64,000 nt of DNA, filler included, from Stramenopiles sp. TOSAG23-6 (GCA_900128565.1; 21 parts of 21 records of this genome joined end to end with filler, not necessarily neighbours in it), one strand, 5' to 3'. Numbered from the whole stretch's first letter, positions 1-61,340 are shown. Translations and numbers: made by a program. The notes: generated by a model from the letters alone, not told the origin.

Positions 1-66
1 TTCATACGAAATTTTGTACCTAACAAATTTTAGTTTTTTTTTTTGAAATATTTTTTCAAAATACAT

Positions 67-1309
67 GCATGCTACAAATGCTGGCAATGTCCTAATGGCT
101 ATTGTAAGCCATCAATTACAAAGACAAAATTTTAGAATGAATAATACTAGATTATTAGAAGCAAGTGTTTATAGAAAAACATCGAATGATACAATCAAAG
201 ATGAATCTTCAAATACAGTCTCAAAAGGTTGGAACGAAGCTGTCACGTCTGTATTGAACTGTTCCACTGGCCCTCAAAGCTCACAATATAGTTCACATCT
301 TACCATAAATACGGATTATTTTTCACATAATGAAAATATAGCAGTTGTATATAATACTACTACTAATAATGATAATAGTAAAAGTAATTTGAAACATAAA
401 TTAATAGTTGTAGAAGACAATAATACAAAAGAAACAAAAGAAACAAAAGAAACAGAAAGAGAAAAAACAGAAAAAACAGAAAAAACACAAAAATGTGATA
501 CTCAATTTGATGCATTATTGTGGCCCTCTCGAATTGCTATTTTATCAATTTTAGATTTGTTTCTATGTCGAAACCCAACTACTTCCATCAATTACCTCTG
601 GGAGTATCAACTAGTCAATAAACAAAGTCGAAATTCAGTAGGTACTAAATGTAACACAACTTCTACTATTTCAAATATGCAAAATAGAACGACTCCAATG
701 ATTAATATAAATACAAATAATACAAATATTACTACTACAAATAATTCTAAACATAAAACAAATATTGATATTATATTTGAATTGCTACACGAAAAACGAA
801 CTGCCGAAATTGCAATAGCTATGTTATTCCATATTTTATGTGCAGCTACACAAGCTCCTATAACAATGAGTGATGTAAAACGTGTTGTTACCAATCGAGC
901 ACAAGCAACATGTATGACGAATTTCATATCAATTTTGAATTTATTTTTTTTTTTTTTTGAAAATTTTTTACCTAACAATTTTTTTAATTTTTTTTCCGAA
1001 ATATTTTTTCATAGTCCATTGACAGTAGCTTCGGCGACATCATTAAGTGCGTATGAAACAGCTATGAAATTTTCAGAAGTTTTACTCATCAAACAATTTT
1101 GTCAAAAATTACAAAACATTCAGAAACAAAAATTAGAAATTGTTGTTTTATATATGTTAGCTGGTCTCCGAGCATTTATATCGCGAGATAGATCAATTTC
1201 TAGTATATGGCCATTTATAAATCATAACTCTAATCACTCTGCACCAAATGTACATTTTGAAAATAATCATAAAAATCATAAAAATCATAAAAATTATCAT
1301 CTACCGTCT

Positions 1310-1343
<34 letters not shown>

Positions 1344-2924
1344 CTACTACTACTACTTCTACTACTACTGCTACTACTACTACAACAAAAACAACAAATC
1401 AATACGTATCTGGAGAATCATTAATGTCACAAAGAAAAAACGTCTGGTTAGAGAATAAAATTTATTCTCATCTAGCAAAATTATGTACGGTATATAAACA
1501 TCAAGGAACATTGAATCATTCCAGACTTTTCCGTGAAGTATTAATTTGTTTAATGTCATTGATGAGAGCAAGCTGGCAAGCTCAGCAAAGATTTTCTGAA
1601 GAGGTCGGATATCGTCGCTTACGTCAGCTACTATTAAAAAGTGAAAAAGACCCATCACCGATTTTATGTTCTATGTTAATGTACGTTTATCGTTTTTAGT
1701 AAGAATTTTTAGTACAATTTGTTTTTTATATACAAAATTTCGTACCTAAACGTTATTTGTTTTTTTTAGGTCAATATTTTTTCACACTATATACGTATGC
1801 TTAATGATTGCACTGCTAGAGTTTGTCATGTGAAAATTATTCCACTTTTATTTAAATTATTACCTCATATTAGTGACGTCACTCGTCAATTGGATGTTGT
1901 TGTTCATTTAAAATTAGCTTTATTTGGAAGTCGCTCTATACCAAATATGTCTGAATGTAGTAGAATAGAACCTCCTCTTATAGATCAATTAATTGATGCG
2001 TTACCTAGACTCGATGCAATTGTTCAAAAATCAATGATTTTAGATTTACTTGGGTCTTTAGGAAATTGTATGTTTTATTTTATTTCAATTTCAAATTTGT
2101 TTCTTTCATACGAAATTTCGTACCTAACGATTGTTTTGTGATTTCTTGTTTTTTCACAATACATATTTGCTTACAGTCTCTCAAATGAAACGTTTAATTC
2201 AACTTATGCAACATAGAGGTCAATTTCAAAGTGCATTGGCTCCACTCATAATGGAAGCCTTACAATCAATGATTAGTATGAGACATGATGGTCCTCAACA
2301 TTGGTTTGAATTAGATGGTATTGCTTCCGGATTGGATATTTCATATGTATCATGTCCTACTTGGCAATCCCTCGATATAAAAAAAAACAAAAAAACAGGA
2401 TTACCATTTTGGCCCGTTCGTGGGTATGTTTAATTCTTTTCAATTTCGAATTTGTTTTTTTTTTATTTTTAGTACGAAATGTTGTACCTAACAAAAAACA
2501 TTTTACGGAAAAAAAAAAAAATATTTTTTCACAGTACATGTACTCTTTAGCACTTTGGTTACGAGTTGAACCTCCTGAAAGGGTTATGTCTACAACAATG
2601 AATGTATCGAATATTTTTCGATATCAACATAATAATGATGATAATAATAATAATAATAATCAACAAAATAATAATAATATTAACAATCAACAAAATAATA
2701 ATAATAATAATAACCAACAAAATAATAATAATAATAATCATTTTGAAAATAATAGAAAAGTTTTATTCAGTTGTGGTGATAAAAATGGAAATGGGGTTGA
2801 AGTATTCTTAAATTCTTTACGCATTGGAGTTCGAATTATAGAGTATAAAAAAGATATAATTTTATTGTCACCTCTTGAAGCAGCACTACCCGCATCAAAA
2901 TGGACTTTTGTTGTGATTCAACAT
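67..2924 (+). CDS. BEACH/neurobeachin-like protein, internal fragment with ConA-like domain; introns 912-1019, 1681-~1792, 2068-2164, 2424-2539, 2925-gap
   Basis: Spliced LGNYLLTVSQMKRL, GPQHWFELDG..SGL and WPVRGYSLALWLRVE, KWTFVVIQH resemble the N-terminal region of BEACH proteins. Confidence 0.65.
2424..2539 (+). mobile_element. Family intron, GT..AT (116 nt)
   Basis: cgt gg|GTATGT...CAGTACAT|g tac gives WPVRGYSL; shifting the register by -1 or -2 replaces the Gly with Val or Met. Confidence 0.85.
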
Positions 2925-2983
2925 GTACTTTTTTTTTTTAACAAAAAAATCGATTTTTTTTTTCGTACGAAATTTTGTACCTA

Positions 2984-3083
2984 NNNNNNNNNNNNNNNNN
3001 NNNNNNNNNNNNNNNNNNNNNNNNNNNTTAATTAATTAANNNNNNNNNNNNNNNNNNNNNNNNNNNNNNNNNNNNNNNNNNNN
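2984..3083. other. Artificial contig spacer Ns-TTAATTAATTAA-Ns (first of 20, every ~3.05-3.08 kb)
   Basis: Identical 12-mer with stops in all six frames inside N runs; contigs between spacers shrink steadily from ~2982 to ~2945 nt. Confidence 0.98.
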
Positions 3084-59412: not shown

Positions 59413-59695
59413 GCTTAATTGCGAAACAAAGGGATTTTAGAAAATAATATCTCTCCAACCTAGTAAAACTACAGATACTTGACAACAGAGAGATAACAGT
59501 GTCAAACGCGAAGTTGACTTGAAGCCAGAAAAAAAAAAAGTTAAAAAGAAAACACGAAATATTTTTTTAAATTATTTTGATGGCTGGTCAAGTCAAGTCA
59601 AGTGGAGTCAACTCAACTCTCTCACGACTTCGGAATCGGAAGAAGAAGAAGAAAGAATTTACAGTTTTTTTATACCCAAAATTAGTTAAATAGTA

Positions 59696-60364
59696 ATGAC
59701 ATCTGGAGCCCAACTATTAATGGCAGCCACTGGTGGTGCTTGCGTTGCTGGTGGAGTTGCATTACTCTTACATCAGAAAAAAATGTTATCTGGGAAAACT
59801 AAAGTAGCCAAAACTACAAAGGTGATATCAAGAATCGCCGTTGGTACAACAAATAAGTGTAAAGTCGGCGCAGTTATTAAAACCATACAAGAATATCCTC
59901 ATATAAGCAATGCAGAAGTCGTTGCATTCAAAGCACCATCTGGAGTTTCTGAGCAGCCAATGGGCATAGAAACTACTGCACAAGGTGCACGAAACCGGGC
60001 AGAAGCAGCTTGGAATTTGTCTAAAAATTGTGACGTTGCGTTAGGTATTGAATCCGGCCTCTTTAAGTTGGATGATGGTAGTTATTATGATGTCTGTGTA
60101 TGCTCTTCATTTGATGGCAATCGTCACCATCTTGGTATGAGTTGTGCATTTGAAGTTCCTAGTGCAATAATGAAGTTTGTCCAAGAAGACGATATGGATT
60201 TATCACAAGCTTGTAATGCTTCCGGGATTACGTCTGATCCCCGATTAGGAGAACATGGTGGTTTAATTGCTATTTTGACGAATGACCGAGTGACCAGAGG
60301 TAAATATACAAACCAAGCCATTAGAATGGCACTTATTCATACGGAGAAATCACAATGGATGTAA
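59696..60364 (+). CDS. YjjX-type inosine/xanthosine triphosphatase with N-terminal hydrophobic anchor
   Basis: AVGTTN..KV.AV, SGVSEQP, GARNRA, GIESG, GLIAILTN.RVTR. Confidence 0.88.
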   Translation: MTSGAQLLMAATGGACVAGGVALLLHQKKMLSGKTKVAKTTKVISRIAVGTTNKCKVGAVIKTIQEYPHISNAEVVAFKAPSGVSEQPMGIETTAQGARNRAEAAWNLSKNCDVALGIESGLFKLDDGSYYDVCVCSSFDGNRHHLGMSCAFEVPSAIMKFVQEDDMDLSQACNASGITSDPRLGEHGGLIAILTNDRVTRGKYTNQAIRMALIHTEKSQWM

Positions 60365-60423
60365 AAAAATATAAAAAAAGGAAATATCTTTTGCATTTAT
60401 TTTAATTTCTTAACGTTCAAATT

Positions 60424-61186
60424 TTAGAGTTCATTATTTCCTATTGAATTATCAGCAGTACCTTCTACCACAACATTTTCATCAAAAAATAAATCAAATG
60501 GCAGCCACTCTTTCGTTGGTATAGACCTTGGTCCAACTCCACGTTTCAGAGCAATACGATTCATGTATTTTGGAAAAATATTTCAAAAAAAAAATCTAAA
60601 AAAAATGTTAGGTACAAAATTTCGTATGAAAAAAAAATCGAATTTGAAAAAAAATAAAACATTCATAATTTCACGTTTATCCATTCCTTGTCTTCTTTCA
60701 AATGGATCTTGTATTGGAAAGCATATTTCAAAAAATTGATGTTTTTTGTTAGGTACAAATTTTTCAAAGTAAAAAAAAAATGAAATTTATAATGAAAACA
60801 TATTCCAAAGGGCCAAAAATCATGTCGTTCTGGAAAATAATGTTCCGATACTTCATCGTAAAGATTTGATGTCTCCTCCCCATGTATTGTGGAAAAATAT
60901 TTCAAAAAAAACTAAAATTTTTTGTTAGGTACAAAATTTTTATAAAAAAAAAAATCGATTTTTTTGTTTAAAAAAAAAATAAAACATACATATTCATTAG
61001 TTTCTGCATATTCTTGACCTTGATCATATAGTAGTCTTTCTTTTGGATTTCCTAAAGTTTTAAAAGCATCAGAAATTTTCTGAAACATTTCATCAGATCC
61101 ACCTTTCTTATCAGGGTGATGCTGACGGCTCATTTTCCTATAAGCCTTTTTTAATTCTTTCAATGTAAAATCAGTCGATACTTGTA
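60424..61186 (-). CDS. J-domain (DnaJ) protein, C-terminal part; introns 60882-60989 (GT..AT), 60709-60803 (AT..AA), 60563-60664 (GA..AT)
   Basis: ELKKAYRKMSRQHHPDKKGG; spliced frame open through WPFGDPFERR to a stop. Confidence 0.88.
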
Positions 61187-61340
61187 ATGTATTTTGGAAA
61201 AATATTTCAAAAAAAAAAAAAAAATTGTTAGGTACAAAATNNNNNNNNNNNNNNNNNNNNNNNNNNNNNNNNNNNNNNNNNNNNTTAATTAATTAANNNN
61301 NNNNNNNNNNNNNNNNNNNNNNNNNNNNNNNNNNNNNNNN

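Follow-up and report, generated by a model that had tools for sequence, protein, structure and literature searches.

Introner-like introns that mostly end in AT: a probable mobile family in a MAST-3-labelled stramenopile

Where does an intron end when its last bases are not AG? The question is raised by DNA of Stramenopiles sp. TOSAG23-6 (GCA_900128565.1), of which a stretch of 64 kb was analysed, here called the window; it consists of 21 contigs of about 3 kb each, joined by linkers of the form N44-TTAATTAATTAA-N44. The genes in this window are interrupted by one family of similar elements of about 100 nucleotides (nt), which begin with a familiar donor site, carry a familiar branch site and end for the most part in AT. 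The 3' AG is among the most constant signals of eukaryotic gene expression, and where exceptions to it are known, they are rare, as minor introns are, or go together with a general loss of boundary signals (Fritillaria, Amoebophrya, euglenids). Judged from the genomic sequence, the elements are probably an introner-like mobile intron family of a MAST-3-labelled stramenopile that is spliced by a U2-type mechanism at a non-AG 3' site, and we give this reading a probability of roughly 0.7.

How numerous and how uniform are the elements? Their core, TACGAAATTTTGTACCTAAC (20 nt), was found 48 times with at most three mismatches, against 0.01 expected from shuffled sequence, and 58 times with at most four. 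A hidden Markov model (HMM), trained on 24 curated copies and used with a cut-off of E<=1e-3, likewise gave 58 matches, which cover 4841 of the 61194 non-N bases (7.9%), and at least eight degenerate or truncated copies lie beyond these. The load is about one copy per kb, the G+C content of the element is 18% (that of the window ranges from 20 to 39%), and the host genes belong to at least ten different families. Three contigs are without a family copy (36900-39863, 46086-49044 and 61341-64000), and their G+C content is somewhat higher. According to a crude test of the flanking open reading frames, 36 copies lie in the sense orientation of the interrupted gene and one in antisense, with 21 left undetermined. 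The antisense call (60716-60801) has a sense copy of its gene on either side and can probably be put down to noise; because the small exons there (60665-60881, J-domain gene) are open in two frames, the ends of this intron are not fixed. Curated full copies measure 91-136 nt. A preliminary description of the window had spoken of about 70 copies, mostly 90-140 nt long and in sense orientation, and these figures agree well with the present counts. Its interval of 33-47 nt from CTAAC to the intron end was slightly too narrow: of 28 copies, 26 have the branch A of CTAAC at 33-57 nt from the 3' end, and in the other two, which are compound, the distance is 81 and 87 nt.

The consensus of the family, about 102 nt long, reads GTATGTTTTATTTTTTTCAATTTCAAATTTATTTTTTTTTTCGTACGAAATTTTGTACCTAACAAA...AAATATTTTTTCACAATACAT. 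It opens with the donor GTAYGTTTT, in which position +5 is G in 25 of 28 copies and position +6 is T in all 28; a branch-site box, GTACCTAAC, contains CTAAC and is followed by a T-rich tract and then by a conserved 3' box, ..ATATTTTTYCAMAATAY. About 70 of the roughly 100 positions are conserved, including a palindrome, CAATTTCGAATTT, and 12 nt located 5' of the branch site. Neither the palindrome nor the 12-nt block has a known role in splicing.

The two ends of the element differ in how far they follow the textbook. Among the 23 full-length HMM matches the first two bases are GT in 20, AT in two and GA in one, and the last two are AT in 20, TT in two and AG in one. The ending in AT instead of AG, which had first drawn attention to the family, is thus its rule. 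In place of the U2-type YAG the introns close with YAT or ACTT, and they fall outside the boundary rule of published surveys, GY..AG (or AT..AC). With ends placed by motif, 30 cases were confident, and in 27 of them removal brought the dominant frame upstream into register with the dominant one downstream; inspection of the three failures revealed mis-placed donors or read-through frames. When they were taken from the HMM, the frame was restored in all 11 testable copies of the 23 (those in which only one frame is open over 60 nt on either side), and the other 12 were compatible. All equivalent shifts of the boundary were also tabulated: GT..AT is possible in 21 of 26 copies. Two other rules were rejected on the same table, AT..AC being possible in only 10 of the 26 copies and TG..CA in 12.

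The inferred ends are not simply the first AG under another name. Skipped AGs, situated 7 nt or more past the branch A yet short of the inferred end, occur in 15 of 28 copies; often the AG belongs to a conserved TTTTAG at 10-13 nt from that A, and in the SNM1 intron 20318-20420 the skipped AG lies 10 nt past it. The oligopeptidase B intron 55984-56076 has no AG at all after the branch point, and nine of 26 copies offer no AG that is in frame and free of stops anywhere from the branch point to position +60. Exceptions with AG exist: the family copy 50042-50132 ends in ..ATATAG, and an intron of the GH38 gene that the HMM does not detect is GT..AG, and therefore AG acceptors are also used in this genome.

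The exact junctions can be judged where the host proteins have homologues. Pfam matches in the window include GH38, ankyrin, Vps26, DNA-PKcs CC3, neurobeachin, P4-ATPase, Peptidase_S9 and AMP-binding, as well as a metallo-beta-lactamase domain that is consistent with SNM1; they support the gene names proposed earlier (GH38, ankyrin, 4CL, SNM1, VPS26C, DNA-PKcs, oligopeptidase). Products computed with the elements removed can be aligned to homologues, at 41-64% identity, with no gap. In oligopeptidase B, the Peptidase_S9 profile is contiguous at 52/53 across 55761-55859 and runs 93, split codon, 95 across 55984-56076 (here and below, a slash between positions, residues or bases marks the junction). 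PDB chain 8rfb is contiguous at 491/492, where read-through would carry 31 extra codons, and all three junctions are ungapped against P0007 (54%) and P0005 (51%), with the junction Met matched. In the acyl-CoA ligase, the AMP-binding profile is contiguous at 179/180, and PKG/VQLTH matches PKGVQLTH of P0002 without a gap, the junction being ungapped against P0003 as well. Removal of 40448-40554 and 40231-40366 from VPS26C yields 253 amino acids with 64% identity to P0159 and no gaps, whereas use of the in-frame AG at +6 opens a two-residue gap at the junction against P0159, P0163 and P0162. The TT-ending SNM1 intron 20318-20420 gives LNTL/CLGFGG, ungapped against P0010 and P0011, and junction 2 of this gene is likewise ungapped; junction 1 (19833-19930) is not settled by homology because the homologues are variable there. 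The claim that removal restores conserved motifs was therefore well founded for oligopeptidase B, the ligase, VPS26C and SNM1, where the junctions are contiguous.

If the elements are introns, which spliceosome takes them out? The donor agrees with the U2-type GTRNGT (GTAYGT in most copies) and the branch site with CTRAY (a CTAAC core at 48 sites). With G at +5, T at +6 and CTAAC at a distance of 33-57 nt from the end, the signals point towards U2-type splicing in which the choice of 3' site is altered. The best surviving alternative is that the same family is processed by the minor (U12-type) spliceosome or by a transformed, U12-like one. The minor spliceosome is known to accept A or G as the first base and last bases other than AG or AC. 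In Physarum (10.1101/2020.10.12.336362), GT-AT and AT-AT make up 17% and 8% of those U12-type introns that are non-canonical, and in the stramenopile Blastocystis minor introns number in the hundreds and the four minor snRNAs are all present. The family itself shows G or A at +1, conservation to +9, a very strong branch box and variable ends (AT, TT, AG). These GT-AT and AT-AT classes, rare as they are among U12-type introns, should have stood in the comparison list of the preliminary description, where they were missing. Nevertheless, the U12 donor RTATCCTT has C at both +5 and +6, where the family has G and T; the branch box ACCTAAC is unlike the U12 TCCTTAAC, with no TTCCTTRAC near the 3' end; and the 33-57 nt from branch A to intron end contrast with 9-12 nt in those Physarum U12-type introns that carry the motif. 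Processing by a minor spliceosome is for these reasons improbable.

Did the elements move into their present sites? In 20 of 28 copies the intron closes with the same 2 nt that precede it, where shuffles give a mean of 15.85 (P=0.0045). An AT flank precedes 17 of 24 AT-ending copies (AT makes up 9.9% of dinucleotides), and a TT flank precedes five of five TT-ending copies, compared with two of 26 copies with other ends (P=1.2e-4). Because such a TT..TT repeat is direct, not inverted, the outer pair acts as a target duplication of 2 bp would. In addition, across about 100 nt the base at +4 (C or T) is linked to that at -8 (A or not), with 0 of 10 versus 8 of 18 (P=0.025); this linkage and the existence of compound copies with two cores fit descent from master copies, not convergence. 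One paralogous pair of a filled and an empty site was found, in the Cys-rich repeat gene, where the unit after 44405-44501 starts ..ACAT/GTGTAGAT and its paralogue reads uninterrupted, ACATGTGTAGAT. At least 15 contig ends lie inside a family copy (e.g. 2933-2983, 3085-3144, 18295-18366, 18470-18536, 43025-43123 and 61187-61240), and the family therefore probably limits assembly contiguity to about 3 kb.

It could be argued instead that these are ordinary inherited introns with long, strict signals in AT-rich, low-complexity sequence; they would not be mobile, and the non-AG end would still be real. Conservation is indeed strongest at the donor, around the branch site and at the 3' end, pairwise identity is on average only 69%, and no transposase was found in the window. 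This explanation fails to account for the conserved blocks outside the splice signals, the linked end variants, the compound copies, the co-variation of flank and end, the paralogous filled and empty sites and the assembly breaks at copies, and we consider it decidedly unlikely. The family also differs from hairpin introns of the euglenid nonconventional or Amoebophrya type, which have stable end pairing and unconserved borders: its borders are conserved, and covariation between the two ends, judged by eye, was nowhere convincing.

Several observations made beside these concern the make-up of the copies. At 20072-20217 (+), 51399-51640 (-) and 50240-50410 (-) lie compound introns; they have two cores or long stretches of poly-A/T inside them, and they look like one copy inserted into or beside another. 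In a photolyase/cryptochrome-like gene (3244-3345, +), TTGGACTTCCAG and RTATTTTAAATTTATATTTTTTCAATTTCAAATTTATTTTTAT form a tandem duplication with the 5' half of the family and no core. Telomere-like CCCTAA and CCCTAAA units occur inside family introns, and AACCCT repeats occur in coding sequence, where they encode Asn-Pro runs (NPNPN) in the neurobeachin-like protein; repeat stretches of these kinds lie at 24360-24385 (+), 34560-34640 (-), 16090-16110 (-) and 17000-17900 (-). Outside the window, a scan of metagenomes with the core motif gave four loci, of which only L003 holds a true family copy: 104 nt at 2475-2578 (minus strand of the fetched record), clear, GT..AT, sense and frame-restoring, on a contig of 3.2 kb and 35% G+C that has no similarity to the window beyond this copy. 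The same motif gave one match among prokaryote genomes, in a Bacteroidales metagenome-assembled genome and presumed to be chance, and none among viral contigs.

Could the copies not be removed at GT..AT at all, with nearby cryptic GT..AG sites used or the copies retained in the mRNA of damaged genes? The public gene models speak for it: those at 23475-24354, 55611-56502, 19327-20000 and 40066-41075 use GT-AG pairs or read through the elements. An in-frame AG lies within 60 nt in 17 of 26 copies, and contigs from RNA libraries contain element sequence, for which pre-mRNA, excised intron or DNA carry-over are all possible. The depth of contigs with element words relative to unique bins is about 50-170x in RNA, below the roughly 860x in DNA; such depths are not quantitative, and they carry no weight either way. 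All four models examined are, however, wrong. P0001 (ligase) deletes the conserved QLTHYNMAA; P0004 (oligopeptidase B) skips the catalytic-serine exon with GESAGG and translates two introns; P0009 (SNM1) translates the intron 19833-19930; and P0160 (VPS26C) uses the +6 AG and translates intron sequence, which opens the gap described above. By contrast, the GT..AT products are free of gaps, and neither the sense-only orientation nor the 11 frames restored in 11 tests would be expected of unspliced sequence. This explanation is very improbable, and gene counts and functional inferences for these uncultured ocean flagellates probably need re-annotation that allows GT..AT. Excision from DNA instead of RNA, as with the internal eliminated sequences of ciliates, is close to negligible. 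The short direct flanking repeats and short inverted ends do resemble the footprints of such events, but the donor and branch boxes are spliceosomal, the copies are strictly sense, the skips listed for the independent seawater DNA run lie only between different element copies with none removing 24081-24207 at its ends, and nuclear dualism is not known in stramenopiles.

On the other side of the balance, a number of observations weigh against a mobile family spliced by a U2-type mechanism. Flank and end are unlike in eight of 28 copies; the inverted ends are only about 4-7 nt long (GTAT/ATAC plus a T/A run) and overlap the splice signals; and the window holds no detectable transposase or autonomous copy. 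The copies are fairly diverged, as their mean identity and nearest neighbours at 72-88% indicate. RNA folding is ordinary in comparison with shuffles (mean z -0.66); pairing of the ends is seen in 10 of 24 copies, over 4 bp only. The short inverted ends, the divergence, the folding and the missing transposase are points against a classic MITE. AT and GA starts and the pairs GT-AT and AT-AT are known traits of minor-spliceosome introns. In flank-matched copies GT..AC followed by NN and NN followed by GT..AC yield the same mRNA, which leaves the boundary to be decided by copies with unmatched flanks alone, and the Gly codon of the ligase is the one clear case. Finally, read mapping, which covered contig 21547-24520 in three metatranscriptome runs and one seawater metagenome run, gave no RNA contig over the ligase exons, no informative joint and no spliced junction in the metatranscriptomes; the joints listed for this contig link different element copies, and nearly all of them occur in the DNA run as well, so that the mapping favours neither splicing nor its absence. 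For this organism the protein searches returned the public models only, with no transcript-derived protein among the matches. As to the boundary, the unmatched-flank copies indicate GT..AT, most clearly in the ligase, where the alternative reading would replace the Gly of PKGV, a residue also present in P0002 and P0003.

How would such a family work? A mobile element, non-autonomous and short (about 100 nt), would have spread through genes, by DNA transposition as we infer, and only sense copies would survive because the element is removed from the transcript as an intron. The intron would end two bases past the 3' box, usually after AT and less often after TT, and this final pair would be a copy of the pair that closes the upstream exon, like a 2-bp target-site duplication; a cut before GT and after the duplicated pair would thus restore the original coding sequence exactly. 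Removal would be RNA splicing by the major (U2-type) spliceosome, which would recognise YAU instead of YAG, or else simply the position that follows the 3' box. The earlier proposal of a mobile intron family in a lineage that tolerates non-AG acceptors is upheld at the level of sequence, RNA splicing and the type of spliceosome being inferred. Reading frames and homologues alike call for precise removal of the elements.

A further and more tentative suggestion concerns the 3' site of most introns in this lineage, which might not be read as a dinucleotide: the cut may be fixed two bases after a ..CAMAATAY box, on an AT or TT target duplication, with intervening AGs ignored. The TT cases and the skipped AGs suggest this, and we regard it as possible rather than probable. 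If it is true, any gene that the element enters is healed, a property that would account for a load of about one intron per kb, and the second step of a U2-type spliceosome does without the near-universal requirement for a terminal G. A dominant intron class with a textbook donor and branch site but an AT end, in a marine protist that is free-living, would be a clean natural experiment, with a bearing on site choice in the second catalytic step and on the creation of introns by mobile elements that need no AG in the target.

Whose genome is it? Exons on three contigs are 97-100% identical to four predicted proteins (P0001, P0004, P0009 and P0160), three of which carry the EukProt name GSMAST32.ASY1.ANO1.*, while P0009 comes from an unnamed library; by that label, the organism is a MAST-3 marine stramenopile or very close kin. 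Sampled words of three contigs were found in two coded 'organism A' DNA runs (fractions 0.81 and 0.72) and in three seawater metagenome runs (0.23-0.38), and therefore the sequence of the window recurs in independent environmental DNA. The stretch 3500-5500 has many single N. In the GH38 gene (10830-10850, -) the frame shifts within a T run, gaattttttttatcc, with no intron at the site, which is either a homopolymer error of an amplified single-cell assembly or a real frameshift. An Rfam scan of the window gave no match at the gathering score or at E<=1, and a search of the window for tRNA genes found none. The individual introns are listed in table 1.

Table 1. Position, ends and length of the introns in the window, and the basis on which their ends were placed.
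Feature	Position	Strand	Ends	Length (nt)	Basis or remark
Whole family span	1..61240	follows interrupted gene			58 HMM matches on 18/21 contigs
BEACH-type gene intron	1681..1792	+	GT..AT	112	frame restored
Family intron	2068..2164	+	GT..AT	97	in-frame AG 12 nt downstream, possible alternative
Family intron	2424..2539	+	GT..AT	116	split codon GG/G = Gly
Ankyrin-repeat gene intron, contains N run	8221..8327	-	GT..AT	107	HMM ends, Pfam
Neurobeachin-like gene intron	16783..16883	-	GT..AT	101	HMM ends, Pfam
Family intron	17576..17710	-	GT..AT	135	frame restored
SNM1 intron 1, TT 5' flank	19833..19930	+	GT..TT	98	in-frame AG 6 nt downstream possible
SNM1 compound intron, two cores, TT flank	20072..20217	+	GT..TT	146	homologue alignment
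SNM1 intron, TT flank	20318..20420	+	GT..TT	103	ungapped against P0010, P0011
Acyl-CoA ligase (4CL-like) intron	24081..24207	+	GT..AT	127	AMP-binding 179/180; restores PKG/VQLTH
Family intron	26533..26641	+	GT..AT	109	frame restored
Family intron	26831..26946	+	GT..AT	116	boundary-shift listing
Family intron	28228..28324	+	GT..AT	97	boundary-shift listing, HMM ends
Family intron	28561..28659	+	GT..AT	99	boundary-shift listing, HMM ends
DNA-PKcs-like gene intron	35127..35223	-	GT..AT	97	Pfam
Family intron	36384..36482	-	GT..AT	99	frame restored
VPS26C intron	40231..40366	-	GT..AT	136	ungapped against P0159
VPS26C intron	40448..40554	-	GT..AT	107	in-frame +6 AG gives 2-residue gap, three homologues
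Cys-rich repeat gene intron	44405..44501	-	GT..AT	97	paralogous unit: empty site from 44625
Family intron	49408..49525	-	GT..AT	118	frame restored
Family intron	49803..49926	-	GT..AT	124	frame restored
Family intron with AG end	50042..50132	-	..AAAATATAG	91	boundary-shift listing, HMM ends
Oligopeptidase B intron	55761..55859	+	GA..AT	99	Peptidase_S9 profile 52/53
Oligopeptidase B intron	55984..56076	+	GT..AT	93	Peptidase_S9 profile 93/M/95
Oligopeptidase B intron, GT start impossible	56279..56372	+	AT..AT	94	homologue alignment
J-domain gene intron	60563..60664	-	GA..AT	102	HMM ends
J-domain gene intron	60882..60989	-	GT..AT	108	HMM ends
Comparison: GH38 intron, undetected by family HMM	10176..10272	-	GT..AG	97	GH38 gene

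Does the family correspond to anything already described? The comparison is made with the published papers as far as their available text extends. The MAST genome papers (PMC5778133, PMC12614181, PMC8163842, bioRxiv 2026.04.17.719054) make no mention of non-canonical splicing in that text, and no such system was found in the literature on introners in MAST-3, on GT-AT introns (here judged by titles and the openings of abstracts) or on non-canonical introns of stramenopiles. Those U12-type introns of Physarum that are non-canonical share with the family the pairs GT-AT and AT-AT, A or G at +1 and long conserved motifs; they amount to less than 1% of introns, whereas the family is the dominant class in the window and its donor, branch motif and spacing do not fit U12. 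In Fritillaria borealis (PMC13326754) fewer than 10% of introns are GT/AG, a U2-type spliceosome acts on them, and recognition by U1 and U6 at the 5' site and by U2AF at the 3' end is affected, with RNA and biochemical support. Both are lineages in which most introns break the GT/AG rule; the present family, known from sequence alone, keeps GT in 20 of 23 copies and is changed at its 3' end only. The introns of Amoebophrya (PMC7789003) have no preferred terminal dinucleotides and carry inverted repeats of 8-20 nt and direct repeats of 3-5 nt. Repeated introns, direct repeats that overlap the boundary, complementary ends and a failure of GT-AG annotation to find them are common to both, but our family has a canonical, strongly conserved donor and branch box, closes with AT in nearly every copy and shows little pairing between its ends.

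The closest relatives are the introners, transposon-derived families in Micromonas, Aureococcus, Symbiodinium, Chrysochromulina and others (PMC9860276; PMC12130899). Surveys of them have accepted GT, GC, GA or AT at the 5' end and only AG or AC at the 3' end, and discarded families with unfamiliar sites that lacked RNA support. Such surveys, which start from annotated introns and accept AG/AC only, would therefore miss the family. It differs from known introners, with their repeats of 3-9 bp, in its AT or TT ends, its 2-nt repeat, the lack of a clear terminal inverted repeat and the lack of a detected autonomous partner. We regard it as a new form of introner with a non-AG 3' end, one for which the available literature gave no published description. 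In other respects it resembles introners: many similar short introns, with a G+C content below that of the exons, lie in unrelated genes, a flanking direct repeat falls on a splice boundary, and removal would leave the length of the mRNA unchanged. The resemblance is to the Chrysochromulina type, in which the element brings the 5' site and the 3' site comes from the duplicated target.

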